Positions 4,449-27,082 of a DNA stretch of 27,082 bases are shown here, in pieces (the stretch's first letter is position 1; the number at the start of each line of letters is the position of its first letter). This stretch comes from an uncultured Planctomycetia bacterium (GTDB lineage: Bacteria; Omnitrophota; Gorgyraeia; Duberdicusellales; CBEUCJ01): positions 1-27,082 of the forward strand of contig CAYNIO010000001.1 in NCBI GenBank assembly GCA_964397495.1, given 5' to 3'. Under the pieces are notes generated by a model, which saw only the letters and a list, made by a program, of their open reading frames with translations, ran no database searches and was not told the DNA's origin. Made by a program: the position numbers and the translations under genes.

Positions 4449-4456
4449 CAATTAAA

Positions 4457-6178: not shown

Positions 6179-7263
6179 CAGCGTCCTTTAAGGGAAAAGA
6201 GAGAACCCAGAAGAAAAAAATCTAAGATGGTATGGGTGCCTCCATAGGTGAGGAAAGGCAAAGGCAGGCCCACCACAGGAAGCAGGCCTAGATTCATCCC
6301 TATATTTATGAATATATGCAAGAGAAAATAGAAAAATACTGCCTGAGCATAGATCTTGTCAAAATTGGTAATGGCTTGGGAACGTTTATAAAGAATAAAT
6401 TTTAAAATAAAGAAATAAAGCAACAATAAGAACACACACCCCACAAAACCCCATTCTTCAGCGTAAACACTAAAAATAAAGTCAGTATGCCTTTCAGGCA
6501 AAAAATTAAATTGGCTCTGGGTACCGCTCATAAAACCCTTTCCTGCAACTCCCCCTGAACCAATAGCAATCTTGGCCTGAATGATGGTGTAACCTGCCCC
6601 AAAAGGGTCTTCTTGAGGGTTGAGGAATATAAGGAGGCGTTTCTTTTGATAATCCTTTAAATGGGGGAAAAGCAGAGGAGAGGCAAGAATACCCAGCATT
6701 ATAAAATAAAGTATGTATTTTTTCTTAAGAGGAAGAAAAAAATACATACATATAAATATCAAAATATAAAATATAGCTGTGCCTAAATCCGGTTCAAGAA
6801 ACACTAGAAATGCTGGAACTGCTGTAAGAATAAGAGGAGCAAGAAATTCGTACCAGAAAACCCTCGGCCAAGACATAAAGAAGGATATCCCCTGAAAATA
6901 TCTATGCCACCAGAAAGCAAGGATTGCCAGAATAGCGAACTTCATTATCTCTGAAGGCTGAAAAGAAAAACCCCCTAGGCCCAGCCACCTCTGGGAACCT
7001 CCCACTTCCTTCCCCAGGATTAAAACCCCAAAAAGAAGCATCAATCCCCCCAAGTAAAGGGCACCTGCCAATTCATAAAGGGGGAGCCTAAATTTCAACA
7101 ATATTAAAAATATTACCCAACCTAACCCGAGCCAGATGGTATGCTTAAAAAGAATGCCTTTATATAAAATATTCCCTGCATAGGAGACAGCACTCATCAG
7201 GTTAAGGATGCTCAAGAAACTTATAATAACTAATGAAGAGATAAGAGTATCTTTATTCTTCAT
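6178..7263 (-). CDS. rodA: Rod shape-determining protein RodA (SEDS glycosyltransferase)
   Basis: Multi-TM protein with GSQRW, FQPSE, EPDLGTA, AIGSGG, LPERHTDFIF, LPFLTYGG; directly follows mrdA. Confidence 0.95.
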   Translation of the reverse strand: MKNKDTLISSLVIISFLSILNLMSAVSYAGNILYKGILFKHTIWLGLGWVIFLILLKFRLPLYELAGALYLGGLMLLFGVLILGKEVGGSQRWLGLGGFSFQPSEIMKFAILAILAFWWHRYFQGISFFMSWPRVFWYEFLAPLILTAVPAFLVFLEPDLGTAIFYILIFICMYFFLPLKKKYILYFIMLGILASPLLFPHLKDYQKKRLLIFLNPQEDPFGAGYTIIQAKIAIGSGGVAGKGFMSGTQSQFNFLPERHTDFIFSVYAEEWGFVGCVFLLLLYFFILKFILYKRSQAITNFDKIYAQAVFFYFLLHIFINIGMNLGLLPVVGLPLPFLTYGGTHTILDFFLLGSLFSLKGR

Positions 7264-8959
7264 CCAGCAACCCCTCTTCTCTAAGAGACTTTAAAAAACT
7301 ATGGGCTGTTTTGCAAGCAAAGAAACTTGAGCCTCCGTGTTCAAGAAACACCACAAATACGTACCTGGGCTTCTTGTAAGGAAAAAAACCTGCAACCCAG
7401 GAATGAGGCGCTCTGTTAGTTTGAGCAGTCCCTGTCTTAGCGCATATCTTCAACTTTAAATCTTCGAGGATATGGGCAGTCCCTCCTTTGTCTCTCACCG
7501 CTCTTCTCATACCATCCCTTACCGTATCCAGATTAACTCTCGAGGCCTCAAGCGTCTCCTGCTGGGAAGGCTCTATGTCTAATGTCCCAATTCTCCTTAT
7601 TATATAAGGCTTGCTAAATCTACCCTGAGCCAATGAGGAAACCATTCTGTAGACCTGCAGGGGTGTAGTTAAAACCCAGCCCTGGCCTATGCTGAGATTG
7701 CAGGTATCTCCCTTAGTCCAACTCCTCCTTAAGGAAAACTGCTTCCATTCCGGGCTGGGCAAGAACCCTGCAGAAGAAGGGAAATACGAAAATACTCTCC
7801 TGCCTAATCCTAACATATGCGCATATTTTAAAATTCTTTGAGGCCCCAGGAGTAAACCCACGTTGTAGAAAAAAACATTACAGGAATTCTTTAAAGCCTC
7901 CCTCACATCCTGAAGACCATGCCTCATCCAACATTTAAAGGTCTGTTGCCCCACAAGAAACTCACCCGGGCAGAAAAACTGTGTTTTATCTGTAATTACT
8001 GACTCTTCTAAACCTGCGGTAGCCACCACCAACTTAAATATTGAACCAGGAGGATACCTCCCCTGCAGTGCCCTGTTATAAAGAGGGGCGTCCAGACTTC
8101 TCAGAACCTTATTTATATAAGAAGAATTTCTTTGTGTAAATTTCTGGGAGTCGAATCCAGGAAAAGAAACTAAAGCTAAAATCTCTCCCTGGGGCCTGCC
8201 AAAGATTATACAACCCTTTTTTCCTTTGAGGGCTTGGAAAGCCAACCTCTGAATATCTACATTTAAGGTAAGTTCGATGTCATTCCCCTTCAGAGGATAC
8301 TTTACCTGCAGCGTCCTGATTTTGTGCGAAGAAGCGTCCACTATAATTATGCGGCCTCCGTCCTTGCCCCTCAAATATTCATCGTAGTATTTTTCTAATC
8401 CCAAATGCCCAATTCTGCGAGGAGGGCTAAGGCCGTATTTCTTAAACAAGAAATATTCCTCCTTGGTAGTATAACCTACATATCCTACCAAATTAGAGAA
8501 TTCATAAGGATAGTGATAGTAACGCCTGAACCTGCGTATAATACCCAAACCCTTAATCCTATAAAGATTTCTTTTTATCTCCTGCAACTCTTTCCTTGAG
8601 AGTTCGTCTTTAAGGACTACGGGCAGAAAACGGGAGACAAAATTCCTTTTGTAGAGCCTTTTCAAAGAAAAGGCGTCAACCTCTAAAAGCAAGGAAACCT
8701 CTTTAAAGAAATACTGAAGATTTTTTACCTCCTGGGGATAAACTACACAGGAATAAATCTGGACATCTTCAGCGATGGGGCGGTTGTGACGATCAAGAAT
8801 TCTTCCCCGCTTCGCAGGCAGGGAAACTACCTTAAGATAATTCCCTGAAGATATAACCCGGTAATAATTAAAATCTTTTACCTGTAAAGACCAGAGGCCA
8901 GCGATTATTGCCAGGAATACAAAAAAACATATAATCCAGAGTCTTCTCTCAACGGACAT
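7253..8959 (-). CDS. mrdA: Penicillin-binding protein 2 (class B PBP)
   Basis: N-terminal TM anchor, RGRILDR, transpeptidase motifs SxxK (PGSIFK), SxN (SCN) and KTG (AKTGT); lies between mreB and rodA. Confidence 0.93.
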   Translation of the reverse strand: MSVERRLWIICFFVFLAIIAGLWSLQVKDFNYYRVISSGNYLKVVSLPAKRGRILDRHNRPIAEDVQIYSCVVYPQEVKNLQYFFKEVSLLLEVDAFSLKRLYKRNFVSRFLPVVLKDELSRKELQEIKRNLYRIKGLGIIRRFRRYYHYPYEFSNLVGYVGYTTKEEYFLFKKYGLSPPRRIGHLGLEKYYDEYLRGKDGGRIIIVDASSHKIRTLQVKYPLKGNDIELTLNVDIQRLAFQALKGKKGCIIFGRPQGEILALVSFPGFDSQKFTQRNSSYINKVLRSLDAPLYNRALQGRYPPGSIFKLVVATAGLEESVITDKTQFFCPGEFLVGQQTFKCWMRHGLQDVREALKNSCNVFFYNVGLLLGPQRILKYAHMLGLGRRVFSYFPSSAGFLPSPEWKQFSLRRSWTKGDTCNLSIGQGWVLTTPLQVYRMVSSLAQGRFSKPYIIRRIGTLDIEPSQQETLEASRVNLDTVRDGMRRAVRDKGGTAHILEDLKLKICAKTGTAQTNRAPHSWVAGFFPYKKPRYVFVVFLEHGGSSFFACKTAHSFLKSLREEGLLDEE

Positions 8960-9011
8960 CTATAAAATGAAAAATTTTATGAATGGATATCTTAAATAGG
9001 AAGGATGTATT

Positions 9012-10097
9012 TTATCCTTCTCCGCGTGAGGCAACTATCAGTCTCTTCAGGTACCCAAACTCCTCCAGGACTTTGCCTGTGCCTAAGGCTACAGCAGTTA
9101 TGGGGTCATCGGCTACAAATACAGGCAGACCCGTCTCTTGTGCTAAGAGTTTATCCAGCCCTCTTAAAAGAGAACCCCCTCCTGCCAAGACTATTCCCCT
9201 CTCAATCAAATCTGCAGCCAACTCTGGAGGAGTCCTTTCTAAAGTAATTTTGGTAGCTTCTATAATTTCCCTTATGGGAGACTCCAAAGCCTCCCTCACC
9301 TCTTGAGAGGTTATCTTTACATGTTTGGGCAGACCCACAATTAAATCTCTCCCCTTAACCTCCATCTCCATCTCTTCCTCCTGAGGGTAGGCTGAACCTA
9401 TTTTTATCTTTATCTCCTCAGCAGTACGTTCGCCTATCATAAGGTTATAGTTTTTCTTCATATATTCAATTATGGCTTCGTCCATCTCGTCTCCGCCTAT
9501 CCTTATAGATTTAGCAAATACTATACCCCCTAGAGAAATGACTGCAATCTCAGTGGTGCCTCCACCGATATCAATAATCATACACCCTGTTGGCTCCTCA
9601 ATGGGAAGACCCACACCTATGGCTCCTGCTAAAGGCTCTTCAATCCAGAAGACGTCTCTGGCACCTGCTTTAAAAGCAGACTCTTTGACTGCGCGCTTCT
9701 CCACCTCGGTTATCCCCGAGGGGATAGCGATTACCATTCTGGGCCTCCCCGAAAACCTTCCAGGATTAACCTTCTTTATAAAATAGCGGAGCATCTTTTC
9801 TGAAATATCAAAATCCGCTATAACTCCGTCTTTCATAGGCCTTATAGCCACAATGCTACCTGGTGTTTTTCCCAGCATACGTTTGGCTTCGGCCCCCACT
9901 GCCAGAACGTTATTGGTTCCCTTCTGTATGGCTACCACTGAAGGCTCGCATAAGGCTATACCTTGGTTCTTAACGTAGATAAGCGTGGTGGCTGTGCCTA
10001 AATCTACGCCTATATCGTTAGAGAAGAGACCTAGAATCTTATCGCTTACTCTAGTGAATCTTTCTTTTAACTGAGAGGTAAGATTTAAAGGCATCAT
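9012..10097 (-). CDS. mreB: Rod shape-determining actin homologue MreB
   Basis: [56 protein letters not shown]. Start could be either of two tandem ATGs (10097 or 10094). Confidence 0.97.
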
Positions 10098-10107
10098 TTT
10101 TCCTAAA

Positions 10108-10136
10108 AATTTACCAGAGAGACTCTAATCTGTCAA
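10108..10136 (-). promoter_or_regulatory. Sigma70-type promoter for mreB-mrdA-rodA
   Basis: Minus strand TTGACA (10136-10131), 17-nt spacer ending in TGG (extended -10 TG-n), TAAATT (10113-10108). Confidence 0.65.
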
Positions 10137-10210
10137 CAAATAAAAGACCCCTTGGCAATCTTTTTTGACTCTGGCAAAATAATCCTTGAAATAATTGACC
10201 TATTTAGATA

Positions 10211-11524: not shown

Positions 11525-11531
11525 AGATGAA

Positions 11532-11592: not shown

Positions 11593-12513
11593 TTATAAAT
11601 AAGATTTATTTACAAGGATCTTGCGGAAATCTTCAGGCAAAGGAGACCTAAATTCCATATAATCACTGCTTTGGGGGTGGACAAATCCCAAAAGGTAAGC
11701 GTGCAAACACAATCTAACTCCCTTTTGGGAACGATGATACTTAGGGTCTCCAATTATAGGATGACCTAAAAATTTAAGGTGGACTCTTAACTGGTGGGTT
11801 CTTCCTGTGTAAGGCTCCAATAATAATAGAGTGGCGTGCTTAAATCTTTTCAATACCCTGTAACGGGTAAAGGCAGACTTGGCCTTTACAAATGAAACTT
11901 TGAATTTTGTAGGGTCCTTGCGAGAACGACCTAGAGGAACCTCAATAAACCCTTGGGCGTGTCTAACTACACCCTCCACTAAAGCCAAATACTGCCTCCT
12001 TATCGTATGGAGGGAAAACTGACGCGCCAACTCACTGTGAATATAATCTTCAAAAGCCACAACCATTACGCCTGAAGTATCCCTGTCTAAACGGTGCACA
12101 ATTCCTGGACGTGGAGTATCCATCCTTGAAAGTTTAGGGTACCTATAAAGAAGAGCATTGACTAAAGTCTTGGTCTTATTGGTAGAAGTGGGGTGCACTA
12201 CCAACCCCGAAGGCTTATCTACAACTGCCAAGCAATGGTCTTGGTAGAGTATTCTCAAAGGATACCTCCAGGCAGAGATATTTGAATCAGCCTGAGGAAT
12301 GCAAAGGAGCACCTTTTCTGCGCCTTTAACCTTATAGGAAGGTTTTACCTTGATATTTCCTACACTGACTAAACTCTTAGAGAAAAGATCTTTAATGAAA
12401 GAACGAGAAAATCTTCCCTGCAAGGCCTCAAAGAGCGCCTTGTCCAGCCTCTTGCCCCTATAATTCTTACCAAGAGTTAAGACTATTTTCTGGGATTTAA
12501 GAAAAGATACCAT
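11593..12513 (-). CDS. rluD: RluA/RluD-family 23S rRNA pseudouridine synthase with S4 domain
   Basis: S4-like KRLDKAL, VDKPSGLVVHP, catalytic GIVHRLDRDTSG, TGRTHQLRVH, GDPKY, LHA; follows lspA as is common. Confidence 0.92.
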   Translation of the reverse strand: MVSFLKSQKIVLTLGKNYRGKRLDKALFEALQGRFSRSFIKDLFSKSLVSVGNIKVKPSYKVKGAEKVLLCIPQADSNISAWRYPLRILYQDHCLAVVDKPSGLVVHPTSTNKTKTLVNALLYRYPKLSRMDTPRPGIVHRLDRDTSGVMVVAFEDYIHSELARQFSLHTIRRQYLALVEGVVRHAQGFIEVPLGRSRKDPTKFKVSFVKAKSAFTRYRVLKRFKHATLLLLEPYTGRTHQLRVHLKFLGHPIIGDPKYHRSQKGVRLCLHAYLLGFVHPQSSDYMEFRSPLPEDFRKILVNKSYL

Positions 12514-12926
12514 ACCCCTAAGAGAATTACCCCTGCAGTAATAAAAATGTCGGCAAGGTTAAATACTGGAAGAATCCTTATGTCTATAAAGTCTATCACC
12601 CCCCCATACAGAAACCTATCGCAAAGGTTGGAGAAGGCCCCGCTGATTATGCCCACAAAACCACAATAACCCCACACCCCCAAAGACTTCCTTTCAGAGG
12701 CGAAGCTAATTAATACTATTGCCCCTATAATTAAAGATGTGGCAATCCATACCAGATTAAACCCCCTGCCCAAACCAAAAAGCGTGCCTGTATTCCTTAC
12801 CAGATAGAATCTGAAAAAACCCAGATTTAACCCCTCCTTTAAGGAATTCAGGGCCCAAAATTTTGCAAGGCGGTCTAAAAAGACCAATAAGGATATAAAG
12901 AGGGCATCCTTAAGAAGCCTTCTCAC
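12483..12926 (-). CDS. lspA: Lipoprotein signal peptidase (signal peptidase II)
   Basis: Hydrophobic protein with NTGTLFG, GAFSNLCDR, VIDFID, VFNLAD; GTG start. Confidence 0.92.
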   Translation of the reverse strand: MRRLLKDALFISLLVFLDRLAKFWALNSLKEGLNLGFFRFYLVRNTGTLFGLGRGFNLVWIATSLIIGAIVLISFASERKSLGVWGYCGFVGIISGAFSNLCDRFLYGGVIDFIDIRILPVFNLADIFITAGVILLGVWYLFLNPRK

Positions 12927-13330: not shown

Positions 13331-16108
13331 CTAAAAATCCTTGTCCTCAAGGACTAAGACACACCGTTGGCAAATATCAGGAAAATCTTTATTGTTGCCT
13401 ACAGTAGTTGAATAATTCCAGCACCTTAAACATTTCTTGCCTTGAGCGCGTTCTACAATTATATCCAAAGTCTCAGCCTTTTCAAGTTTAACAGAAGAGA
13501 CGATAAAAATCCACTCTAAATTCGTATTTATATCTCTTAAAAAATTATAAAACCCTAAGGGGGCTTTAATAACAAGGGAAGCCTCCAGAGACGAGCCTAT
13601 CAACCCTTGCTGGCGCTTCTCCTCAAGGGCCTTGGTAACTTGGTCCCTAAATTCAAAAAGAAGTTTATTGTATTTATTTAAAATTTCCTCATTTTTAAAG
13701 ACTGAATCGAGTTCTATCCAGGAACTTAAAAAAACAGAGTCTTCTTTTTCCAAACCCAAGTTTTTAGCCGCCCTGAAAGCCTCTTCAGCGGTGAAACTTA
13801 AAATGGGAGAGAGCACTCTGGTAAAGAATTTTATAAGGTAGTAAAGCACGCTCTGGGCAGAACGCCTGGGCCTGCCTTCCTTTCTTAAAGTGTAAAGTCT
13901 GTCCTTAAGGATATCGAAATAAATATTGCTTAAGTCCACTACGCAGAATTTGTAAATATCTTGATAAACTTTAAAAAAGGCATAATCCTCATAAAAACCC
14001 TCTATCCTCTCAAGAATTTGGCAAAGGCGGGATAAAGCCCATTTGTCTATCTCCAAAAGTTGCCGGTAGTCTAAAACGTCCTGGGGAGAAAAATCATAGA
14101 GATTGCCTAAAATAAATCTCAAGGTATTCCTTATCTTCCTGTAAGACTCTACCACCTGAGAAACAATGTGAGGAGACATCTTGACATCCTGATGGTAGTC
14201 AGAAAAACATGCCCAGAGTCTGAGAATCTCTGCCCCGTAACCTTTTACCACCTCCTGAGGTGAAACTACATTCCCTAAGGATTTGGACATCTTCCTCCCC
14301 TTCTCGTCAACCACAAATCCGTGAGTTAAAACCTCTCTGTAAGGAGGTCCTTTGCCTATGCCTATCGCAGGAATTAAAGAAACCTGAAACCAGCCTCGAT
14401 GCTGGTCCGAGCCTTCAAGATACAAATCTGCGGGGAAACCCAAGTTATTATCGCTCATCAACACTGCGTAAAAACTCGCCCCTGACTCAAACCATACATC
14501 CAAAATATCGCCCTGCTTCCTGAAAGACTTTCCTGAACAATGCTTGCAAGAATAACCTGCAGGCAACAATTCCTCTTCAGTTCTTGAAAAATAGATATCG
14601 CTCCCCTCTTTCTCCACCAAATCTGCTAAATGCAAGATAATCTCCTTCTCTATAATAATTCTTTTGCAGTTTTCGCACCTAAATACAGGAAGAGGCACTC
14701 CCCACAGCCTCTGCCTTGAAAGGCACCAATGAGGACGCAATTCAACCATAGAAGATATACGCTCTTTACCCGATGAGGGAACCCACCTCACCTGCGATAT
14801 GGCTTTTAATACCTTATCTCTTAAATCTTTATGGTCGACATCGAAAAAATATTGGTAGGTAGCGCGAAATATTATAGGGTTTTTGCATCTCCAGCAAAAA
14901 GGATAACTGTGGACAATCTTCTCCTCATAAAGAAGCAAACCCCTCTCCTTAAGTATGGCTATGATGAGGGGGTTAGAAGCATAAACATCTTTCCCTTTCA
15001 GGAGTTGGGGCACATAATCATCGTCTTTAAATCTGCCTTCATCATTTACAGGAACGAGTACCTCAAGGTTATACTTCTTGCCTATCTGGAAATCTTCCTC
15101 TCCATGCCCAGGGGCAATATGTACTATGCCTGTACCCTCCTCGCCAGAGACAAAATCTGCAAGAATTACTCTAGAATCCCTGGAAATAAAGGGGTGTTCA
15201 AGCAAGGCGCCTTCCAAATCTCTGCCTCTAAAATCTTGAATAACTTTATAAGTCTTAAGGGAAAGTTTGTCTAAAAGAGGATGGATTAAATCCCTGGCCA
15301 AAACCATCTTTTTAATCTTTCCTTCCAATTCTACCTCTATAAGGCAATAGGATAAATTGGGATTTACTGCGCAAGCCACATTCCCCAACAAGGTCCAAGG
15401 AGTTGTGGTCCATACTGCAAAATATAAATCCTCTGAAGGCAACCCTGCGGGCATATCCTTAACAGGGAAGAGTATGTATATCGAAGGCGACTCCTTGTCA
15501 TAATATTCCACCTCTGCTTCTGCCAGAGCAGTCTGGCAACTCTTACACCAGTTTACAGGCTTAAGGTCTCTGTAAATATATCCCTCCTGCGCCAAAAGGG
15601 AAAACAACCTCAATACCTGGGCTTCATATTTCCTGTCCAAAGTAAGATAAGGATTCTCCCAATCTGCAAATATTCCCAGCCTTTTAAAATCCTCCCTCTG
15701 AATATTTACAAATTTTAAGGCATAATCTTTAGCCATCTTTCTAAACTCTAAAATCTCAACTTGGGCCTTATCTTTGTTTATCTCCTTAAATAACTGATGT
15801 TCCACAGGGAGACCGTGGCAATCCCAGCCTGGCTTCATATACACTCTAAAGCCCTTAAGAGACTTATACTTAAGAACTATATCCTTTAAGATTTTATTGA
15901 GAGCATGACCTATGTGTATAGGGCCATTGGCATACGGCGGGCCATCGTGAAGGACAAACTTTGGAGAATCCTTATTCTTCTTTAACATCCTCTCGTAGAC
16001 ATACCCCTCTTTCCAGAAGGAAAGAAATTGAGGCTCCTTTTTGCTAAGGTTGGCCTTCATAGAAAAATCGGTCTGGGGAAGATTGAGAGTAGAACGCCAG
16101 TCTTTCAT
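13331..16108 (-). CDS. ileS: Isoleucine--tRNA ligase (bacterial type 1)
   Basis: HDGPPYANGPIHIGH, WDCHGLPVE, WTTTPWT, GTGIVHIAPGHG, WCLSRQRLWG, EGSDQHRGWF, KMSKS, C-terminal CLRC...CQRC. Confidence 0.98.
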   Translation of the reverse strand: MKDWRSTLNLPQTDFSMKANLSKKEPQFLSFWKEGYVYERMLKKNKDSPKFVLHDGPPYANGPIHIGHALNKILKDIVLKYKSLKGFRVYMKPGWDCHGLPVEHQLFKEINKDKAQVEILEFRKMAKDYALKFVNIQREDFKRLGIFADWENPYLTLDRKYEAQVLRLFSLLAQEGYIYRDLKPVNWCKSCQTALAEAEVEYYDKESPSIYILFPVKDMPAGLPSEDLYFAVWTTTPWTLLGNVACAVNPNLSYCLIEVELEGKIKKMVLARDLIHPLLDKLSLKTYKVIQDFRGRDLEGALLEHPFISRDSRVILADFVSGEEGTGIVHIAPGHGEEDFQIGKKYNLEVLVPVNDEGRFKDDDYVPQLLKGKDVYASNPLIIAILKERGLLLYEEKIVHSYPFCWRCKNPIIFRATYQYFFDVDHKDLRDKVLKAISQVRWVPSSGKERISSMVELRPHWCLSRQRLWGVPLPVFRCENCKRIIIEKEIILHLADLVEKEGSDIYFSRTEEELLPAGYSCKHCSGKSFRKQGDILDVWFESGASFYAVLMSDNNLGFPADLYLEGSDQHRGWFQVSLIPAIGIGKGPPYREVLTHGFVVDEKGRKMSKSLGNVVSPQEVVKGYGAEILRLWACFSDYHQDVKMSPHIVSQVVESYRKIRNTLRFILGNLYDFSPQDVLDYRQLLEIDKWALSRLCQILERIEGFYEDYAFFKVYQDIYKFCVVDLSNIYFDILKDRLYTLRKEGRPRRSAQSVLYYLIKFFTRVLSPILSFTAEEAFRAAKNLGLEKEDSVFLSSWIELDSVFKNEEILNKYNKLLFEFRDQVTKALEEKRQQGLIGSSLEASLVIKAPLGFYNFLRDINTNLEWIFIVSSVKLEKAETLDIIVERAQGKKCLRCWNYSTTVGNNKDFPDICQRCVLVLEDKDF

Positions 16109-16971
16109 TAAAGGTACCTTTCTATTATGGGTCTGAGTTTTTTCTTGAGTTTTGGAGGAATAAGGTGTTTAGGTGTTACGATGCTATCCCTCAAGGCATC
16201 CTTGCAACTGCAGGTCCTCTCTTCAGGAATCTTAGGTATGAGCGCCTTGAGTATCTTTTTGGCATTCTTAATATTCTTCAAGAGGTTGTCAACTACCATC
16301 TGGGCAGTAACCTCTTCATGGTGGGGATGCCAACAGTCATAGTCTGTAACTGCAGCCAGAGTAACATAACACATCTCTGCCTCGCGGGCTAACTTTGCCT
16401 CAGCGAGGTTAGTCATACCAATGATATCAAACCCCATCTTCCTGTAGAATTGGGACTCAGCCAAAGTAGAAAATTGAGGACCTTCCATATTTACGTATAC
16501 CCCTCCCATATGCACACCTACTCCTGCCTCCCTACAGGATTCATAGACTATGCTTCTAAGTTCGCTACATACAGGTTGAGAAAATCCTACATGGACCACG
16601 CAGCCCTTTTCTAAGAAGAAACTGCATTGACGCCCAGAATTGGTACGGTCAAAGAACTGGTCAGGGATAACAAAATCCAGAGGCTTCAGTTCCTCCTTTA
16701 AACTACCACAGGCAGAGACAGAAATAATCCTCTCCACACCCAACATCTTAAAGGCGCAGATATTAGCCTGAAAATTTAAACTTGTAGGAGGAATTTTATG
16801 GCCGCGGCCATGACGAGGCAGAAAGGCCAATTTTCTTCCCTCTAATTCTCCAATAACTATACTATCGGATGGCCTGCCAAAAGGAGTATTAACATTTATT
16901 CTGCGTCTTTTCTTAAGGCCCTCTATCTCATAAAGACCACTTCCGCCAATTATACCAATCTTCACCTTCAT
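16108..16971 (-). CDS. mtnP: S-methyl-5'-thioadenosine phosphorylase (MTAP)
   Basis: GIIGGSGLY, LPRHGRGH, VSACGSL, PDQFFD, EGPQFSTLAES, IGMT...EAKLAREA, VTDYDCW. Stop overlaps the ileS start (TAATG). Confidence 0.93.
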   Translation of the reverse strand: MKVKIGIIGGSGLYEIEGLKKRRRINVNTPFGRPSDSIVIGELEGRKLAFLPRHGRGHKIPPTSLNFQANICAFKMLGVERIISVSACGSLKEELKPLDFVIPDQFFDRTNSGRQCSFFLEKGCVVHVGFSQPVCSELRSIVYESCREAGVGVHMGGVYVNMEGPQFSTLAESQFYRKMGFDIIGMTNLAEAKLAREAEMCYVTLAAVTDYDCWHPHHEEVTAQMVVDNLLKNIKNAKKILKALIPKIPEERTCSCKDALRDSIVTPKHLIPPKLKKKLRPIIERYL

Positions 16972-17780
16972 CTCCCCAACCTCCTAGATAATTCTTTAGC
17001 CCTTAAATAAGCCTGCCTTAAGGCCTGCTTGTATATACTCTTAAGAGCATATCTTTCAAAAGTCTTCAGAGCCCTCTCAGTAGTCCCCTTTTTAGAGGCT
17101 ACGCTCTTTATCAATCTTGAAGTATCAAAATCAGAATCCTTCAAAATCTCTAAACTTGCAAGAAAAGTCTGGTAAAGAAGTTTAACACAAATTTCTCTGC
17201 CCAGTCCTAGAGAGCGACCTGCCTCAAGAAGAGATTCGAATACATAAAATATGTAGGCCGGCCCACTCCCTGAAAGGGCGGTAATTTTGTCTACATCTAT
17301 TTCTTTAACCCTAATACATAACCCGAAACTCTTCAAAACACTTAGGGCCATCTTCTCATCATTCGCATTGCAATTCCTGCCCAAAGAGTAAACGCTAGCA
17401 GATTTTCCAATCTTAGTTCCCAGATTAGGCATAACTCTGACTACAGGTTTATCCTTAAGATATTTTTCAAGAAAATTTAAACTTACTCCAGCAGCAATAC
17501 TTATAAAAATTATCCTTCTGGAAGGAAGGTGCTTCCTTATGTCCCCAAGGAGCATTCTTAAATCCTGGGGTTTTACACACAAAATTACTACCCTGCAAGT
17601 CGAAAGTATTTGGTTTACATTTTTAGCAAGAATTACCCTATACCTTTTTTGGCACTGTCTTGCCTTTAGAATATCGGTATCATAACCTATTATTCTAGTC
17701 TTAGAAAAATTGCGCCTTAAGGCGTGGGCAATCGACGAACCCATATTCCCTAAACCTATTATCCCTATAGCATATCTCAT
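16968..17780 (-). CDS. proC: Pyrroline-5-carboxylate reductase
   Basis: GIIGLGNMG, VKPQ, ISIAAG, VRVMPN, TALSGSGPAY, VASKKGTT; SD GAGG 7 nt upstream of the ATG. Confidence 0.95.
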   Translation of the reverse strand: MRYAIGIIGLGNMGSSIAHALRRNFSKTRIIGYDTDILKARQCQKRYRVILAKNVNQILSTCRVVILCVKPQDLRMLLGDIRKHLPSRRIIFISIAAGVSLNFLEKYLKDKPVVRVMPNLGTKIGKSASVYSLGRNCNANDEKMALSVLKSFGLCIRVKEIDVDKITALSGSGPAYIFYVFESLLEAGRSLGLGREICVKLLYQTFLASLEILKDSDFDTSRLIKSVASKKGTTERALKTFERYALKSIYKQALRQAYLRAKELSRRLGR

Positions 17781-17789
17781 TTGAGTGCC

Positions 17790-17873
17790 TCAAAAATCTA
17801 AAAACTCGGTAAGAATATCTGCTAATTTTAAACTATCTGGGCTTTTAATGCAATGGAAAAGTTGCAGCGCTGT
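17790..17873 (-). pseudogene. yggS: Putative remnant of yggS (PLP homeostasis protein)
   Basis: The intergenic frame reads *TALQLFHCIKSPDSLKLADILTEFLDF*, resembling the YggS core motif as I recall it (roughly AVxLFDxIHSVDSLxLAxEI), at the position just upstream of proC where yggS often sits. There is no start codon and it is flanked by stops. It overlaps a promoter-like motif, so the resemblance could be chance. Confidence 0.5.
17825..17853 (-). promoter_or_regulatory. Sigma70-type promoter for proC-mtnP-ileS-dksA-lspA-rluD
   Basis: Minus strand TTGCAT (17853-17848), 17-nt spacer, TAAAAT (17830-17825); about 40 nt of leader with an SD before proC. Confidence 0.6.
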
Positions 17874-17915
17874 TTAAGGGCCCTGCAAACTCTAAGGAAT
17901 ATTAGATTTTAGGCA

Positions 17916-19076
17916 CTAGAGGTATTCCTGATAGAGGGCTTTTAGAAATCTTATCGCCCTGCCCAGTCCTTTGTCTGGTGTTTTTTGGGAAAGGGAAAAA
18001 TTGTATTTAGCACACCCCAAGGAAGACAATTCGTGGGAAGGTGCAGGATTCTGCAAAACAACTAATTCTGCGCCGGGTTCAAACAAAGAACCAAAATACC
18101 TTCTCAAGCCCTTGGTAAGAGCCACCCCGCCGCATAGATAAATATTACTTCTTAAAAAAGACGAAAGGCTATCCTGCTGGAAACAATTTTTAAGGGAACA
18201 AACAAATTCCTTTAAAGGTTCTTCTATAATCTTGGTTATATCTCTAACCTTATAGGAAAGGTAATCATCCCCTATCTTCAGCATTAGTTCTTCATTCTCC
18301 GAAGCATTAAAATCTAAAAAATCTTGGCGTATCCTCTGGCAAAGTTCCAAAGAAACCTCTAAACTCTGGGACATCTTTATATCTAAATCGGCGCCGCCAA
18401 AATCCAGAAGGTATCTTTTAATAATCCTATTATCCCTGAATACTAAAACTTCGGTAAGCTTCTCTCCCATATCAATCAGCACCCCTTCTTTAAAACTTCT
18501 CTCCGCAGCCACATAACTTGCGTAAGACGAACTGAGCAAACCTTTAAGGTCTCTTCCTAGATATTCAAAAAGTTTGCGTAAGTTGTCATAGAAACTTACA
18601 TTGCACAGAAAGAGCATAAATTCTCCGCCCAAACTCCTGGCCCACAAGCCCTGGGGCTCATATATCCTCTGGGACTCATCCACAAGAAAATATTGAGGTA
18701 TGCTTAGAAGGAGTTTCTGATCCCAACTTCTTCCCAGAAGGGAAGACTGTTCCTTAAGATATTCAACATCACGCCTGTTTATAAGTCTCTCTTTTTCAGA
18801 GGTGAGAGCAAACTTAAAAAATGAATTCTTTACAACAATATGCTTACTCTTTAAACAACAAACTAAACTATCTATCTGGAAAGAGGTCTTTTTTTCAGCC
18901 TCAGAAAAAATCTTATCCAAAAATTCTACTAATCCATAAAAATCCTTTACTACGCCCCCATCTATATGGGGAGAACTAAAACTCTCAAGATAGAACATAT
19001 CTGATGGAGTTTTTATTCCACAGAGAGAAATTTTGGAAGAGCCCAACTCCAGACCCCAATACACCCTCTTGCTCAT
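17916..19076 (-). CDS. ftsA: Cell division protein FtsA (divergent)
   Basis: GLELGSSKI, IDGGVVKD, SHS2-like IPQYFLVDE...PQG, LIDMGEKLTEV, FGGADLD, LCGGVAL, C-terminal amphipathic tail RAIRFLKALYQEYL; coupled to ftsQ (ATGA). Confidence 0.85.
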   Translation of the reverse strand: MSKRVYWGLELGSSKISLCGIKTPSDMFYLESFSSPHIDGGVVKDFYGLVEFLDKIFSEAEKKTSFQIDSLVCCLKSKHIVVKNSFFKFALTSEKERLINRRDVEYLKEQSSLLGRSWDQKLLLSIPQYFLVDESQRIYEPQGLWARSLGGEFMLFLCNVSFYDNLRKLFEYLGRDLKGLLSSSYASYVAAERSFKEGVLIDMGEKLTEVLVFRDNRIIKRYLLDFGGADLDIKMSQSLEVSLELCQRIRQDFLDFNASENEELMLKIGDDYLSYKVRDITKIIEEPLKEFVCSLKNCFQQDSLSSFLRSNIYLCGGVALTKGLRRYFGSLFEPGAELVVLQNPAPSHELSSLGCAKYNFSLSQKTPDKGLGRAIRFLKALYQEYL

Positions 19077-19756
19077 TTCTTAAAACTTGTTATAGGGTCT
19101 TGGAAACGCAGGTCTAAAAAAGCCAGGTCGTTCTTATCGATACGCACAAGTATAGTCTGGCAACGCTTAAGGTTCTTTTCTAAATCCTTATAACCTAAAA
19201 TTACCTTTGGGCCTTTTTCTATGTAAAAAGAAAAGTTCACCAAAGAATATATATCTATATACTTTATTTTAAAGGGGAAATCTTGAAGATCTAAAATACG
19301 AAAAAATTCTTTAAGCAACTTCTGCTTAGGCCCAGAAAAATCAAACCCCCTCACCAAAGGCAAACCTGGATGCGGACCTTTTTTAATCCTCTCACCAATC
19401 TTGAAATCCTCCAGAACCTCCCAATAGGAACCCTTGCGGTAAATTTGGAAAAGAGGTTTCTTTAACTTCACCTCTACCAAAACCTTACAGGGAAGAATCT
19501 TCTTTATTCTCTTTATTTTGTATTGAGAAAATTTGCTTCGCAAGGTATCTTCAAGAGAACAAAGATTCAAGGACAAAATCCCTTCTCCAGAAAATCTTAA
19601 ACTTAAAAACTCCTTTATCCTGCGGCAAGGAGGCTGAACTTCAAATTCTTCTACCTTAAGTGCCCGCTCCCTCAAAAATAAAAACCCCGCCCCTAACAGA
19701 ATTAACAAAGCCAATATTGCCAAGGGCAATTTAAAAAATCTTGGTTTCATAGGCAA
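19073..19756 (-). CDS. ftsQ: Cell division protein FtsQ/DivIB
   Basis: Short basic N-terminus, single TM, POTRA-like region (IKRIKKILPCKVLVEV), C-terminal LDLRF motif; lies between ddl and ftsA. Confidence 0.8.
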   Translation of the reverse strand: MPMKPRFFKLPLAILALLILLGAGFLFLRERALKVEEFEVQPPCRRIKEFLSLRFSGEGILSLNLCSLEDTLRSKFSQYKIKRIKKILPCKVLVEVKLKKPLFQIYRKGSYWEVLEDFKIGERIKKGPHPGLPLVRGFDFSGPKQKLLKEFFRILDLQDFPFKIKYIDIYSLVNFSFYIEKGPKVILGYKDLEKNLKRCQTILVRIDKNDLAFLDLRFQDPITSFKK

Positions 19757-20699: not shown

Positions 20700-20701
20700 A
20701 A

Positions 20702-21538
20702 TTAAGTATAAATTTTTATCTGTGTCTCCAATTCTACAGAAAACTTCTCCTTTACTCTTTCCCTTACCTCCAAAATAAGATTCCAAAAATCCTGAAAACA
20801 GGCTCCAGGTTCCACTTCAAAAAAATTTGCATGTATCCTGCTCACCGAGACCCTGCCCCTGCGCATCCCCTTAAGGCCTGTTCTGTCAATCAAGAATCCC
20901 GCAGGTTTATAACCCGGCGGGTTCTTAAATACGCATCCTAATGTTCGCTTATCCCACGGCTGAGTATTCTTTCTGTAAACCATAATCTCTCCTATCTTCT
21001 CAGCAATATCAGGGGGCTCTTTCCTTTCTATCTTAAGTCTTACCTCTGTAATAACTTCGCCTTCAAACCTGCAACTGCGATGGCCAAAATTCAAATCACG
21101 CCTCGGTATCTCAGAAATCTTCCCTTTCCTGTCTAAGACTTTGATAGAAATAACTCTGTCTTCCATCTTGCCCCAGTGAGTAGAGGCGTTGTTGACAACC
21201 GCCCCTCCTATACTGCCGGGAATGCCAGCAAGAAACTCCAGGCCTGACCAACCTCTTTTCTGGGCCTCCTTAAGAAGAAAGGGTATCTTTAATCCTGCGC
21301 CAACCCTAAGGGTATCGCCTTCACTCTGAATATAGTCTATTTCTATCTTAATGAAGGTATCCTCGAACAATCTATCTGAAAAAAGAATACTTGTAGAAGA
21401 AGAAAAAATCTTTATCTCCCTGCCCTCTTTGCCTGAATTCTCCAAAACCTGCTCCAAAGAAGGAAGGTCTCTCACCCTGTATAAAAATTTTGCCTCTCCA
21501 CCTATACCTACAGGCGAAAAATCCTTAAGAAGCGGCAT
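20702..21538 (-). CDS. murB: UDP-N-acetylenolpyruvoylglucosamine reductase (divergent motifs)
   Basis: GIGGEA, GLEFLAGIPGSIGGA, FGHR, QP...GCVFKNP, HANF, ELETQIK; lies between murC and ddl. See the finding on degenerate motifs. Confidence 0.88.
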   Translation of the reverse strand: MPLLKDFSPVGIGGEAKFLYRVRDLPSLEQVLENSGKEGREIKIFSSSTSILFSDRLFEDTFIKIEIDYIQSEGDTLRVGAGLKIPFLLKEAQKRGWSGLEFLAGIPGSIGGAVVNNASTHWGKMEDRVISIKVLDRKGKISEIPRRDLNFGHRSCRFEGEVITEVRLKIERKEPPDIAEKIGEIMVYRKNTQPWDKRTLGCVFKNPPGYKPAGFLIDRTGLKGMRRGRVSVSRIHANFFEVEPGACFQDFWNLILEVRERVKEKFSVELETQIKIYT

Positions 21539-22907: not shown

Positions 22908-23029
22908 CGCATTCTGTCTCTCTCTAAAAAATCTTCATCTGCATTTTGGCAGTAAATCAGAGAATGAATGCTTATATAAAACTTAAAACCTGCCTCTGCC
23001 CAAGAAGAATAAAATAAAACCGCCCCCAT
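22904..23029 (-). CDS. Putative 41-aa small ORF or gene remnant filling the murG-murC gap
   Basis: MGAVLFYSSWAEAGFKFYISIHSLIYCQNADEDFLERDRMR*. The ATG overlaps the murG stop (TGATG) and the TGA overlaps the murC start (ATGA). No family recognised. Confidence 0.4.
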   Translation of the reverse strand: MGAVLFYSSWAEAGFKFYISIHSLIYCQNADEDFLERDRMR

Positions 23030-24117: not shown

Positions 24118-25180
24118 TAAGAAACAAACTCAAAACTAAACTACAAGATAAATAAGAAGAACCTCCATAACTCAAAAATGGGAGAGGCAACCCTTTAGTA
24201 GGAAGAAGCCCCGCAACCACACCCATATTAAGGATGGCCTGAAATACAATAATCCCCAGACAACCCCAGCCTAAATAGAAACTAAAATCTTCTTTGAGCC
24301 CCCTAAGAAGACTCAGGCAGAGATAAAAAAGGAGAAAGAAAAGGCCGACGACCAAAAAGACGCCTAAAAACCCCAATTCCTCACCCACTACGGCAAGTAT
24401 AAAATCGGTATGCGATGCGGGAAGATAAAAGTGTTTCTGAAGACCTTTTCCCAAACCTCTTCCTAAAAGCCCTCCCCTGCCAAAAGCAATCTGAGCCTGG
24501 GTTATCTGAAAGCCTAAACCTTTAGGATCTTGCCAAGGGTTAACAAAAGCAGTAATTCTGCGTAGACGGTAAGGGGAAGAAAATATGAGCAGGGAAAAAA
24601 TAAAAACCCCTCCTATAAATATAGCCAGAAGATGCTTCGCCCTCATCCCTGCTATGAATAACAAAAATACACCCAAAAAGAGCATAAATACTGCTCCTCC
24701 AAAATCAGGTTCAAGAAGCACTAGGCCTCCGATTATACCTGTAATGAAAAGTGGAGGAAGTATTCCCCTAAAAGTGCTGATGATATTTTTTCTACGTGAT
24801 ATATAATCAGCAAGATATACCACAAGAAATATCTTGGCAAACTCTGAAACCTGAAGATTATACCCTCCCAATCTAAACCACCTCTTAGCTCCACCTACCT
24901 GTCTGCCCCATATGAGCACGCCTACAAGCATAAATAAAGAGATTGCAAGTAGTAATATAGATGATTTCTTTAAATATCTCTGGTTTATTTTAAGGGATGT
25001 GAAAAATAGAACTAAACCCAACGTAAAAAATATTAACTGCCTCTTCAAGAAATATTCACTATCCGCATACACCTTCCAGGCATATATGGAAGAAGAACTG
25101 TATACCATCAGTATCCCCAACAAAGAAAGAAATATATATATAGAAAATATCCCCAATACAATAGGCGTCCTATTCTCCAC
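24095..25180 (-). CDS. ftsW: Cell division SEDS protein FtsW
   Basis: GILMVYSSS, GAKRW, QVSEFAK, EPDFG, YRLRRI, GFQITQ, LPASHTDFI, LPFLSYGGSS. Start moved to GTG 25180, which has an AGGAG SD 5 nt upstream. Confidence 0.94.
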   Translation of the reverse strand: MENRTPIVLGIFSIYIFLSLLGILMVYSSSSIYAWKVYADSEYFLKRQLIFFTLGLVLFFTSLKINQRYLKKSSILLLAISLFMLVGVLIWGRQVGGAKRWFRLGGYNLQVSEFAKIFLVVYLADYISRRKNIISTFRGILPPLFITGIIGGLVLLEPDFGGAVFMLFLGVFLLFIAGMRAKHLLAIFIGGVFIFSLLIFSSPYRLRRITAFVNPWQDPKGLGFQITQAQIAFGRGGLLGRGLGKGLQKHFYLPASHTDFILAVVGEELGFLGVFLVVGLFFLLFYLCLSLLRGLKEDFSFYLGWGCLGIIVFQAILNMGVVAGLLPTKGLPLPFLSYGGSSYLSCSLVLSLFLNAAARKK

Positions 25181-26420
25181 AGAGACTCCTGACAATATCC
25201 TTGAAAACCCTGCCCCTTTCTTTGTAATCAGAGAACATATCAAAAGAGGAACACATGGGTGAAAAAAGCACATCTAAAGAGCCCTGCTTTATGGCCTCCT
25301 CTACCGCCTCCCTTATATCCTTAACCCTCACCACATCTTTTACCCCTTGGAGTGCCTGTTCTAAAAGATGCGCGCTCTCACCAAAAACAATTACCTTCTT
25401 TACCCTTTCTAAAAATAAAGGCTCGCTCCTGAGGCAAGAAAAATCCTGCCCCTTGGACCTGCCCCCACATATGAGGACTAAATCTCTGCGCAAAGTCTTA
25501 AGAGCGAATATTCCTGAAGAGATATTGGTGGATTTTGAATCGTTATAGAAATTCCTGCCCCTGAATCTTAACGCTAATTCCAGCCTGTGCCCTAAGGGGG
25601 GGATGCTTTTCATTAAATCAAGGGTCTTGGCCTCTTCTAAACCCACAATCTTTGCACATTCAAGGATGCTGGAAAAATTCTCATTAAGATAGTTATTCTC
25701 TCTAAAAAAAATTACCTGTGCGCGTAAATCTCTAACACATTCTAGAGAAATTCTATCCTGAGAGTTTATGAGGGCAAAATCTTCCTCTGTTTGGTTTTTG
25801 AAAAGATTAAATTTTGAATTCATATAATCTTGAAAGTCGCCATGCCAATCGAGATGGTCGGGCTTAACATTAAGGAGTATTCCTATGTGGGGGCGGAATT
25901 TATCCGTTCTTTTCAATTGGAAACTGCTTACTTCAAGCACCACCCAAGAGCGAGGCTTCAAATCATCTACCAGGGAAGTAAAAGGAGGGCTGAAATTCCC
26001 CCCTATACAAACCTTGAAATTATTTCCTTTCAATATATGGTAAAGGTAATGCGCAACCGTAGATTTACCGTTAGTTCCAGTAACGGCAATAATGTTGGGG
26101 GTAGGACAAAAGAGAAAACCCAACTCTATCTCATCGATTACAGGAATATTATTCTTGTGAGCATACTCAATAATAGGGCATGACTCCTTTATTCCGGGGC
26201 TGGTAACTATAAGGTCCTGGGCCTGAGCAAACTGGAGAGTATGGACTCCAAACTCAGCGTCCTGCAACCTCTGGAGTATGGAAGAATCACTATCCTGGGG
26301 CTCAGATAAAGAACTCACCTTAACTTTGAACCCCCTGTCAAGAAGCAATTTGCAGGCACTCTTGGCACTCTGGCCAAATCCTAGAACCAAAACCTTATTT
26401 ACCCTCCGCGACAGGCTCAT
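25170..26420 (-). CDS. murD: UDP-N-acetylmuramoyl-L-alanine--D-glutamate ligase
   Basis: VTGTNGKST, LEVSSFQL, PDHLDWH, HRLE, NDSKSTN, FSPMCSSFDMF..Y.ERG. Confidence 0.95.
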   Translation of the reverse strand: MSLSRRVNKVLVLGFGQSAKSACKLLLDRGFKVKVSSLSEPQDSDSSILQRLQDAEFGVHTLQFAQAQDLIVTSPGIKESCPIIEYAHKNNIPVIDEIELGFLFCPTPNIIAVTGTNGKSTVAHYLYHILKGNNFKVCIGGNFSPPFTSLVDDLKPRSWVVLEVSSFQLKRTDKFRPHIGILLNVKPDHLDWHGDFQDYMNSKFNLFKNQTEEDFALINSQDRISLECVRDLRAQVIFFRENNYLNENFSSILECAKIVGLEEAKTLDLMKSIPPLGHRLELALRFRGRNFYNDSKSTNISSGIFALKTLRRDLVLICGGRSKGQDFSCLRSEPLFLERVKKVIVFGESAHLLEQALQGVKDVVRVKDIREAVEEAIKQGSLDVLFSPMCSSFDMFSDYKERGRVFKDIVRSLCGE

Positions 26421-27082
26421 CTTATCTTAAGGGTTGAGAGGGCTATTACTGCTAAAATAGCAGAGATTATCCAGAAGCGCACGATTATCTTGGGCTCTTC
26501 CCACCCACGGGCCTGAAAATGGTGATGCAAGGGGGCAATCTTAAAAATCCTCTTATTAAAAAAATTGAAACTTATAATCTGCAAAATCACAGAAAGTGTC
26601 TCTGCCACAAAAATACCGCCTGCGATGAACAACAACATCTCTTTTCTTATAAGGATGCTCACGCACCCCAACATCCCTCCTAAAGCCAGAGAACCTGTGT
26701 CGCCCAGAAATACCTGGGCAGGGAAGCAGTTATACCAAAGAAATCCTAAGACCGCCCCGAGAAAAGAACTCAAAAATACACTTAATTCTCCTGCACCCTC
26801 TACATAAGGAAGGAAAAGATACCCCGAGAAAAGAAAATGGCCGGTAATATAACTAAGCACACCCAAAACTAGGACTACAAAAAGCATACTGCCTGCGGCC
26901 AACCCATCAAGGCCATCTGTAAGATTGACAGCGTTGGACGAACCCATAACTACCAGCAGAGAAAAGACGATATACCCTACGCCTAAAAAGACGACATCCT
27001 TGGTAAAAGGCAGAGTGAGATAAGGTCCTATTTGAGGATGGTTGTAGGCATAAAGAGCTACTGCTATTCCCACCCCAGCCTG
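26417..27082 (-). CDS. mraY: Phospho-N-acetylmuramoyl-pentapeptide transferase; 5' part lies outside the window
   Basis: The frame is open to the window edge. NAVNLTDGLDGLA, GFLWYN.FPAQVFLGDTGSLALG, APLHHHF, KIIVRFW; stop overlaps the murD start (ATGA). Confidence 0.96.
   Translation of the reverse strand, partial: QAGVGIAVALYAYNHPQIGPYLTLPFTKDVVFLGVGYIVFSLLVVMGSSNAVNLTDGLDGLAAGSMLFVVLVLGVLSYITGHFLFSGYLFLPYVEGAGELSVFLSSFLGAVLGFLWYNCFPAQVFLGDTGSLALGGMLGCVSILIRKEMLLFIAGGIFVAETLSVILQIISFNFFNKRIFKIAPLHHHFQARGWEEPKIIVRFWIISAILAVIALSTLKIR

Follow-up and report, generated by a model that had tools for sequence, protein, structure and literature searches.

It has long been asked how walled bacteria manage to divide in the absence of FtsZ, and the matter has been studied almost only in the Chlamydiae and the Planctomycetes, both of which are without FtsA. 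The question is raised anew by a stretch of 27,082 nt (contig CAYNIO010000001.1 of assembly GCA_964397495.1; hereafter, the window), in which a division and cell wall (dcw) gene cluster ends with ftsQ and ftsA, no ftsZ follows, and an elongasome operon contains mreB, mrdA and rodA with neither mreC nor mreD. A preliminary description of the window had tentatively attributed this arrangement to an independent, possibly ongoing loss of FtsZ, and had regarded ftsA as degenerate and the N-terminus of MreB as long and amphipathic. The results described here point instead to the division and wall cluster of a group that is known to lack FtsZ, accompanied by a stripped-down elongasome. According to this explanation, which is considered likely as a whole, the window is an ordinary stretch of chromosome from a fast-evolving, uncultured member of the Omnitrophota, and the absence of ftsZ is ancient and phylum-wide and not a recent deletion at this locus. 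The FtsZ-less state had been described for the phylum as a whole before this window; what is particular to this lineage is the loss of mreC/mreD, the loss of yggS, and the faster divergence of FtsQ and FtsA.

Protein families were assigned from Pfam and NCBIfam profiles, and open reading frames (ORFs) were read from the window. Coordinates are those of the whole stretch, and all named genes are on the minus strand. The features that are central to the question are as follows.

19073-19756, minus strand: ftsQ, divergent, 227 aa; assigned by identity to the syntenic FtsQ of loci L010, L012, L014 and L097
17916-19076, minus strand: ftsA, a divergent short form of 386 aa, intact; assigned from TIGR01174 (100 bits, below cut-off), synteny, full-length similarity and fold
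17781-17915, minus strand: ftsA-proC intergenic gap, 135 bp, sequence read directly; putative yggS remnant at 17817-17870
9012-10097, minus strand: mreB with an N-terminal extension; NF010539, 530 bits
8960-9011, minus strand: mreB-mrdA junction, 52 bp, sequence read directly; the mreC/mreD site in most relatives
7253-8959, minus strand: mrdA, encoding penicillin-binding protein 2 (PBP2); TIGR03423, 495 bits against a cut-off of 455
6178-7263, minus strand: rodA; TIGR02210, 339.4 bits against a cut-off of 336.7

The source organism is assigned to the Omnitrophota on the basis of best protein matches and synteny. All of the named proteins among the best 120 MreB matches (73-83% identity) and among the best 120 Ddl matches (up to 57% identity) are from Candidatus Omnitrophota/Omnitrophica, which bears out the earlier guess at this phylum, and the gene order of the window is common to the Omnitrophota loci L015 and L006. 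The dcw housekeeping proteins are only 36-58% identical to those of the nearest relatives found, placing the lineage on a long branch. A scan of reference genomes with the Ddl of the window returned only three loci, at 37-39% identity, none of which is labelled Omnitrophota, and an exact-sequence look-up of its MreB gave no entry.

Absence of ftsZ from the dcw cluster

The gap between ftsA and proC was read directly and, at 135 bp, is too small for a gene. A tblastn search with E. coli FtsZ gave no match in the window at E<=10. The preliminary description was correct in that ftsZ, yggS, mreC and mreD are absent from the window with short gaps at the junctions, as established by reading the gaps and by tblastn. 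It had also treated the position after ftsA as the usual slot of ftsZ, a slot that is empty in every Omnitrophota locus seen. The 3' ends of dcw clusters were compared across eight distinct Omnitrophota lineages, namely the window and the following seven.

L002: ahpC after ftsA
L010: addA/addB-like helicase-nuclease genes after ftsA
L012/L013: addA/addB-like helicase-nuclease genes after ftsA
L014: ftsA absent; a HAD gene after ftsQ
L015/L016: yggS-proC-MTAP-ileS-dksA-lspA after ftsA
L097: rpsB-tsf-pyrH-frr after ftsA
L099: a radical SAM gene after ftsA

None of the eight (0/8) has ftsZ after ftsA or ftsQ. The FtsZ tblastn search was also negative for L001-L003 and L006-L016, and no FtsZ is encoded in the approximately 150 kb that were inspected near the dcw and mreB genes of relatives. 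The loci L004 and L005, which are not from Omnitrophota, have the canonical order ddl-ftsQ-ftsA-ftsZ.

The origin of the junction is illuminated by L015, a locus on a 409-kb contig whose Ddl is only 46% identical to that of the window. This locus has the order ftsA-yggS-proC with an intact yggS, and 55 bp separate ftsA from yggS. Since this distant locus possesses the same junction with an intact yggS and no ftsZ, the ancestral arrangement in the phylum was already ftsA-yggS-proC without ftsZ.

Published surveys are in agreement with these observations. In the Supplementary Information of Seymour et al. 2023 (Nat Microbiol), which covers 421 genomes of 276 species, Omnitrophota are reported to keep ftsA and, with one exception, to be without ftsZ; this lone ftsZ shares 89% identity with a protein from an archaeon and is put down by the authors to bin contamination or recent transfer. 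The same passage describes Omnitrophota as lineage-wide without ftsY, which would be remarkable if true, and uniformly without ribosomal protein L30. Omnitrophica are also among the FtsZ-less phyla of Pende et al. 2021 (Nat Commun), wherein FtsZ is missing in 4 of 5 genomes, FtsA is kept in 3 of those 4, and OLB16 is the only Omnitrophica genome with FtsZ in the table. The question of ftsZ in Omnitrophota was left undecided by Rivas-Marin et al. 2016, and the main texts of two large Omnitrophota genomics papers make no mention of FtsZ, FtsA or MreB. The absence of ftsZ from all eight dcw ends, distant ones included, together with its reported absence across the phylum, indicates that the loss is old and shared. 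Given that ftsZ is reported to be missing throughout the phylum, the lineage of the window very probably divides without FtsZ.

The fate of yggS is specific to the window lineage. Between two stop codons in the ftsA-proC gap, positions 17817-17870 of the minus strand translate to ALQLFHCIKSPDSLKLAD. In a search space of 400 bp, this peptide aligns with residues 93-110 of the L015 YggS with 9 identities in 18 (E=0.003). Only 18-27 residues remain between the stops, as compared with an ORF of approximately 230 aa with the PF01168 fold; the intact yggS of L015 is located at the same junction. Pfam and NCBIfam profiles find nothing in this segment, which is too short for them. It is plausible, if weakly so, that yggS has decayed to a short remnant in the window lineage, and this suggestion draws mainly on synteny. 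The remnant had been called recognizable, a description that is weakly borne out by the 18-residue match at the same junction and fails at the level of profile matches.

An intact FtsA and a divergent FtsQ

The ftsA gene had been described as degenerate. The TIGR01174 score of 100.3 bits is below the curated equivalog cut-off of 175.85 because of divergence, and orthology is assigned from synteny and full-length similarity. Along its full length, FtsA shares 33-36% identity with its syntenic counterparts in L012, L010 and L097 (E ~1e-81 to 4e-91). An exhaustive HMMER search returned 2230 homologues, and only three other clusters (defined at 50% identity) match at E<=1e-60. The proteins in these clusters are 34-39% identical to the FtsA of the window and 388-392 aa in length, marking out a small short-form subfamily. 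The possibility that this FtsA is an orphan, raised by a word-index search that gave only two non-self matches, was ruled out by the syntenic comparison and the exhaustive HMMER search, which indicate ordinary divergent orthology.

The features expected of FtsA are retained. The protein matches PF02491 (SHS2_FTSA), the FtsA-specific 1C subdomain, and contains both the phosphate-1 (GLELGSSKIS) and adenosine (LCGGVALTKG) motifs; the phosphate-2 motif, DMGEKLT, is non-canonical and common to relatives. An AlphaFold2 model built from a 68-sequence alignment has a mean predicted local distance difference test score (pLDDT) of 94.3 and a predicted template modelling (TM) score (pTM) of 0.90; the model was remade with 68 sequences after a 3-sequence alignment gave an unusable pLDDT of 51. 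When this model is compared with the PDB using Foldseek, the top 19 matches are all FtsA, with TM-scores of 0.73-0.84 over ~370-385 columns, well apart from PilM (0.55-0.73) and MreB. TM-scores are ~0.8 to 7q6d, 3wqt and 4a2a. For the FtsZ-peptide binding site in subdomain 2B, residue-by-residue comparison is unreliable at identities of 15-18%.

The C-terminus of FtsA, GLGRAIRFLKALYQEYL, is predicted by AlphaFold2 to form a helix at residues 369-385, and this helix is predicted to be an amphipathic membrane anchor. Its end (...LKALYQEYL) fits an LYxEY[FL] motif that is nearly invariant in 68 FtsA homologues. In the alignment of these homologues across window residues 369-386, the C-terminal pattern is K-E-L-Y-x-E-Y-F, with Y385 and F386 present in at least 90%. 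Conservation of the extreme C-terminus is thus far above that of typical membrane-targeting helices, which suggests a role beyond lipid binding, such as partner docking.

Evidence for constraint is provided by the relatives. Between L012 and L010, neither of which has ftsZ beside ftsA, FtsA is 74% identical and Ddl is 73% identical; as FtsA is as conserved as Ddl, purifying selection is indicated. Taken with the intact ORF, the full FtsA fold and the conserved C-terminal helix, these findings argue that the ftsA of the window is divergent and intact, and not degenerate.

The ORF at 19073-19756 has no Pfam or NCBIfam match at default thresholds and only a weak match to PF03799 (E=0.025). The gene is located between ddl and ftsA, and its entire product can be aligned, at 32-41% identity, with the syntenic FtsQ proteins of L010, L012, L014 and L097. 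Identity is 32-34% to the FtsQ proteins of L010 and L012, both of which match PF03799, and 41% to that of L097, which has a weak POTRA match. Based on this similarity the unnamed ORF is assigned as FtsQ, in keeping with the earlier assignment. Both FtsA and FtsQ show faster sequence divergence in the window lineage, yet are intact, and this divergence is counted as lineage-specific.

The neighbours of the dcw cluster end differ among the relatives. L014 is the closest dcw relative (MurD 51% and FtsW 55% identical), and its cluster has neither ftsA nor ftsZ; a HAD-family gene (L014 10923-12265) begins 5 bp after ftsQ. The lack of ftsA after ftsQ in L014 hints at a trend towards further divisome reduction in the clade. 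In L010 (12810-18704) and L012 (12797-18711), ftsA is followed, with gaps of 2-21 bp, by genes for an AddA-like protein (UvrD helicase) and an AddB-like protein (PDDEXK nuclease), a tight coupling of the dcw cluster to recombination genes.

MreB and the reduced elongasome operon

The MreB of the window scores 530 bits against NF010539, with the MreB domain beginning at residue 26. Its N-terminus is ~15 residues longer than that of E. coli MreB, with 24 residues before the start of the core as compared with 9. The end of this N-terminal segment, KILGLF, aligns with the E. coli amphipathic helix KKFRGMF, so that the extension sits ahead of the canonical amphipathic helix. Similar extensions of 3-20 residues and variable sequence are found in 9 of 9 Omnitrophota MreBs in an alignment that includes E. 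coli MreB. The presence of the extension in all nine indicates that the long N-terminus is, as judged from this alignment, a trait of the phylum and not of this lineage.

The mreB-mrdA gap is 52 bp (8960-9011), was read directly, and leaves no room for a gene; tblastn searches with the MreC and MreD of a sister lineage gave no match in the window. ORFs of MreC and MreD size are present between mreB and mrdA in L006-L008, L098, L018, L019, L020, L022 and L024. Among these, L006-L008 have an MreB that is 82% identical to that of the window, and L098 has an MreB that is 78% identical as well as the rodA-radical SAM synteny; both keep mreC-mreD at the junction. The loci L018, L019, L020, L022 and L024 are probable Omnitrophota metagenome loci. 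Among the loci with these ORFs, Pfam confirms MreC in three that were tested and MreD in one. Of 80 metagenome mreB loci, most of which are 64-66% identical and probably from other phyla, five were read by hand.

Among the loci inspected, mreC-mreD are gone from the mreB-mrdA junction only in the window and in L009. L009 is from another organism, with an MreB 83-84% identical to that of the window, and has the same order of mreB-mrdA-rodA-radical SAM-MshEN-pilB-pilB, with ~25 bp between mreB and mrdA. These comparisons argue for a clean, lineage-specific loss of mreC-mreD from the junction that is shared with the sister L009, and the two genes are presumed to be absent from the genome as a whole. 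The genes for MreB, PBP2 and RodA are present, adjacent and in order, all score above their NCBIfam cut-offs, and apparently are co-transcribed.

Alternative explanations

Several points weigh against an ancient, phylum-wide absence of ftsZ combined with a local loss of mreCD. The window is only 27 kb, and ftsZ, mreC and mreD could sit elsewhere in the genome. In a 2025 paper the dcw genes of Ca. Omnitrophota are described as 'highly conserved', with no breakdown by gene, and OLB16, a genome labelled Omnitrophica, has FtsZ beside FtsA (Pende et al. 2021). Surveys that rely on marker hidden Markov models could overlook a very divergent FtsZ or a tubulin-like protein, and as the best-known job of the retained FtsA is to tether FtsZ, an FtsZ-like partner might be present. 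The yggS remnant rests on 18 residues, and approximately ten Omnitrophota mreB loci were inspected by hand. The size of the window, OLB16 and the 2025 survey also speak for relocation, whereby the cluster has been rearranged, ftsZ (and mreC/mreD) lies elsewhere, and the division machinery is canonical. In addition, FtsA is kept and seems to be functional, a state that implies FtsZ in model bacteria, and the wide variation in the 3' neighbours of dcw clusters among relatives is a sign of frequent rearrangement. However, neither of two independent published surveys recovered a credible ftsZ from Omnitrophota, and the ~150 kb of dcw and mreB surroundings in relatives encode no FtsZ. For mreCD, relocation is less likely than loss, as every relative that has these genes has them between mreB and mrdA. 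Relocation is judged to be highly unlikely.

The reading that was proposed initially holds that a reduced, host-associated lineage is losing FtsZ independently and perhaps still, with ftsA decaying and MreB taking over by means of a special N-terminus as in Chlamydia. It gains some support from the joint absence of ftsZ, yggS and mreCD at short junctions, from an FtsA with a TIGR01174 score under the cut-off and few close relatives, from the lack of ftsA in L014, and from chlamydial MreB, which binds the membrane and contacts the divisome through an amphipathic N-terminal extension. These observations are outweighed by the empty ftsZ position in all eight dcw ends, L015 and other distant ones included, and by the published phylum-wide absence; moreover, FtsA has a complete fold, a conserved membrane helix and signs of constraint in sister lineages, and the MreB extension is found in every Omnitrophota MreB aligned. 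This initial reading is very improbable, and is largely refuted as to the timing of the loss and the decay of ftsA. A final alternative is that chimeric joins, arising in assembly or binning, removed ftsZ, yggS and mreCD. The window is a metagenome-type contig, and direct evidence for such joins was not found. L001, a 3280-bp contig of an independent ENA assembly (sample ERZ27248458), corresponds to window 16295-19574 with 2 mismatches (99.94% identity) and repeats the ftsA-gap-proC junction, while L009, from a different organism, repeats the mreB-mrdA junction. The recurrence of the junctions in L001 and L009 makes an assembly artefact, which the preliminary description had named as a possible refutation, very unlikely. 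The even GC content of the window and the ancestral ftsA-(yggS)-proC order seen in L015 also speak against an artefact, such that its probability is close to negligible.

Proposed division mechanism

The locus encodes lipid II synthesis, two SEDS (shape, elongation, division and sporulation) polymerases (FtsW and RodA), PBP2, FtsQ, and two intact actin-family proteins, FtsA and MreB. Under the preferred explanation of an ancient FtsZ-less state, the cell would divide without an FtsZ ring. Septal peptidoglycan would be made by FtsW and its class-B penicillin-binding protein (PBP) partner FtsI, together with FtsQ; a gene for an FtsI-type PBP heads the dcw cluster in the relatives L010 and L012, and the corresponding region lies beyond the window. 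The cytoplasmic organizer would be FtsA, anchored by its C-terminal helix, and/or MreB, anchored by its extended N-terminus, both being membrane-bound members of the actin family. Side-wall or general wall synthesis would be carried out by a minimal MreB-PBP2-RodA module that functions without MreC and MreD.

Candidates for the filament that organizes division are suggested by analogy with other systems. MreB-centred division would be a reasonable candidate by analogy with Chlamydia. An FtsA-anchored divisome would be at least as likely, because FtsA is kept here and has been lost in Chlamydiae and Planctomycetes. It is tentatively proposed, as a possibility with rather less than even chances, that Omnitrophota including this lineage use FtsA as the primary cytokinetic scaffold without FtsZ, and that in the window and L009 the wall set has been cut to MreB-PBP2-RodA and FtsA-FtsQ-FtsW, a merged or minimal elongasome-divisome. 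If so, FtsA-scaffolded division would be a third mechanistically distinct FtsZ-independent solution in the Planctomycetes-Verrucomicrobia-Chlamydiae (PVC) superphylum, and would stand alone in retaining FtsA.

The occurrence of FtsA without FtsZ in Omnitrophota has been recorded only in a figure legend and supplementary notes, and is a genuine, under-studied puzzle. To this the window adds that the ftsA-(yggS)-proC junction is ancestral and was already without ftsZ, that the structure of FtsA is preserved even where a lineage evolves fast, and that one sub-lineage has also shed MreC/MreD. Natural minimal gene sets of this kind help to define the needs of FtsZ-independent, peptidoglycan-based division, with FtsA as a candidate FtsZ-independent scaffold.

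Comparison with known division systems

The window most closely resembles the FtsZ-less state described for other Omnitrophota (Seymour et al. 2023; Pende et al. 2021), in that peptidoglycan genes, ftsW, ftsQ and ftsA are kept and ftsZ is missing, and the ftsA-(yggS)-proC-MTAP-ileS synteny is that of the distant L015. It differs in that mreC-mreD are also missing beside mreB, yggS has been lost, and FtsA and FtsQ fall into a small subfamily of divergent, short-form proteins.

In Chlamydiae, division depends on MreB, RodZ and FtsK with PBP2 and PBP3 (Lee, Cox & Ouellette 2019, bioRxiv 697953; Jacquier et al. 2014), and it is through its extended N-terminus that MreB associates with the membrane and contacts RodZ and FtsK. 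Membership of PVC, the lack of FtsZ, peptidoglycan precursor genes, the MreB extension, PBP2, RodA and FtsW/FtsQ are common to both systems. By alignment, the window has an MreB extension ahead of the amphipathic helix; PBP2 is encoded, genes for RodZ and FtsK are absent from the 27 kb, and a class-B PBP gene heads the dcw cluster in L010 and L012. In contrast, FtsA has been lost from Chlamydiae (Pende et al. 2021) and is intact in the window (17916-19076). The Planctomycetota, which divide by budding or binary fission, are likewise FtsZ-less members of the PVC superphylum; they are also missing FtsA, and their mur/fts genes are often lost or dispensable, whereas the peptidoglycan genes in view in the window are complete and clustered.

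Similarities to the canonical FtsZ-FtsA divisome of E. coli, B. subtilis and T. maritima include the ftsQ-ftsA end of the dcw cluster, the 1A/1C/2A/2B actin-like fold and the C-terminal helix. The differences are the lack of ftsZ after ftsA, a clade-wide phosphate-2 motif of DMGEKLT as compared with DIGGGT, and an FtsA that is ~30 residues shorter. Relative to the canonical Rod complex operon (mreB-mreC-mreD-mrdA-rodA), the genes for MreB, PBP2 and RodA are there and in order, and those for MreC and MreD are missing in both the window and L009.

Gene content of the window

All long ORFs of the window are on the minus strand, and the GC content is 37-46% throughout. The genes are arranged in the minus-strand order mraY-murD-ftsW-murG-murC-murB-ddl-ftsQ-ftsA, the 135-bp gap, proC-MTAP-ileS-dksA-lspA-rluD-murA-mreB, the 52-bp gap, and mrdA-rodA. 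The part of the dcw cluster from mraY to ddl-ftsQ-ftsA, its distal half, abuts a phylum-conserved block, (yggS)-proC-MTAP-ileS-dksA-lspA-rluD, which is followed by murA and the elongasome operon. Every gene named in the preliminary description was found in its expected place and order by Pfam and NCBIfam profiles, with FtsW, MrdA, RodA and MreB above NCBIfam cut-offs. The remaining genes of this region are listed below.

26417-27082, minus strand: mraY, cut by the window end; PF00953, E=3e-26, positioned as in relatives L010 and L012
25170-26420, minus strand: murD; Mur ligase M, C and MurD-like N domains, 43-51% identity to murD of L010, L012 and L014
24095-25273, minus strand: ftsW; TIGR02614, 368 bits against a cut-off of 337.5, and PF01098
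23029-24117, minus strand: murG; PF03033 and PF04101
21525-22907, minus strand: murC; Mur ligase N, M and C domains
20702-21538, minus strand: murB; PF01565 and PF02873
19731-20699, minus strand: ddl, 322-aa product as called, with the ORF reaching 20786; PF07478 and PF01820, closest relatives at 53-57% identity
16968-17780, minus strand: proC; TIGR00112, 218 bits against a cut-off of 197
16108-16971, minus strand: MTAP (S-methyl-5'-thioadenosine phosphorylase); TIGR01694, 308 bits against a cut-off of 275
13331-16108, minus strand: ileS; PF00133, PF08264 and PF06827
12910-13350, minus strand: DksA/YteA-family zinc-finger gene; PF01258, with TIGR02890 and NF033459 below cut-off
12483-12926, minus strand: lspA; PF01252
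11593-12513, minus strand: rluD-type pseudouridine synthase gene; PF00849
10211-11524, minus strand: murA; PF00275, E=1.5e-95, also 5' of mreB in L006

The true start of ftsW is probably ~30 codons downstream of the ORF start. A Peptidase_MA_2 gene is located between murG and murC in L014 (7030-7809), L015 (7012-7797) and L099 (6943-7728), and is missing in the window, L010 and L012. A DksA/YteA-type C4 zinc-finger gene is found between ileS and lspA in 3 of 3 Omnitrophota lineages, namely the window, L006 (6629-7027) and L015 (18283-18666).

No RNA families were found in an Rfam scan of the window. A scan of the window for promoters and terminators returned sites no more commonly than expected by chance, with none at the ftsA-proC gap. 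In the murA-mreB intergenic region (10108-10136, minus strand) there is a near-consensus sigma-70-like site, TTGACA-17 nt-TAAATT with an upstream TG, that may be the promoter for mreB-mrdA-rodA, where such matches overall occur at chance frequency.

Beyond the main locus, rodA is followed on its 3' side by genes for a B12-binding radical SAM protein, an MshEN-domain protein and two PilB/GspE ATPases. The radical SAM gene, which is of the TIGR03960 type, directly follows rodA in the window (4514-5935, minus strand), L009 (8933-10585) and L098 (10516-12156), suggesting a conserved link between this gene and the elongasome operon. At the left edge, positions 1-576 (minus strand) contain a cut-off gene with an ATG at 576-574, directly after the second pilB, that has no Pfam match; by eye only, a stretch of its product (...LEYLVKPL...) is receiver-domain-like. 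The assignment of this gene as the T2SSF gene found at the same position in L009 was rejected on comparison. The tandem PilB/GspE-type secretion ATPases (578-4451, minus strand) are 565 and 568 aa in length, and each has an MshEN c-di-GMP-binding N-terminus. They are preceded by a gene for a stand-alone 158-aa MshEN-domain protein, and the trio is kept in L009 (10620-14465), downstream of rodA and the radical SAM gene.

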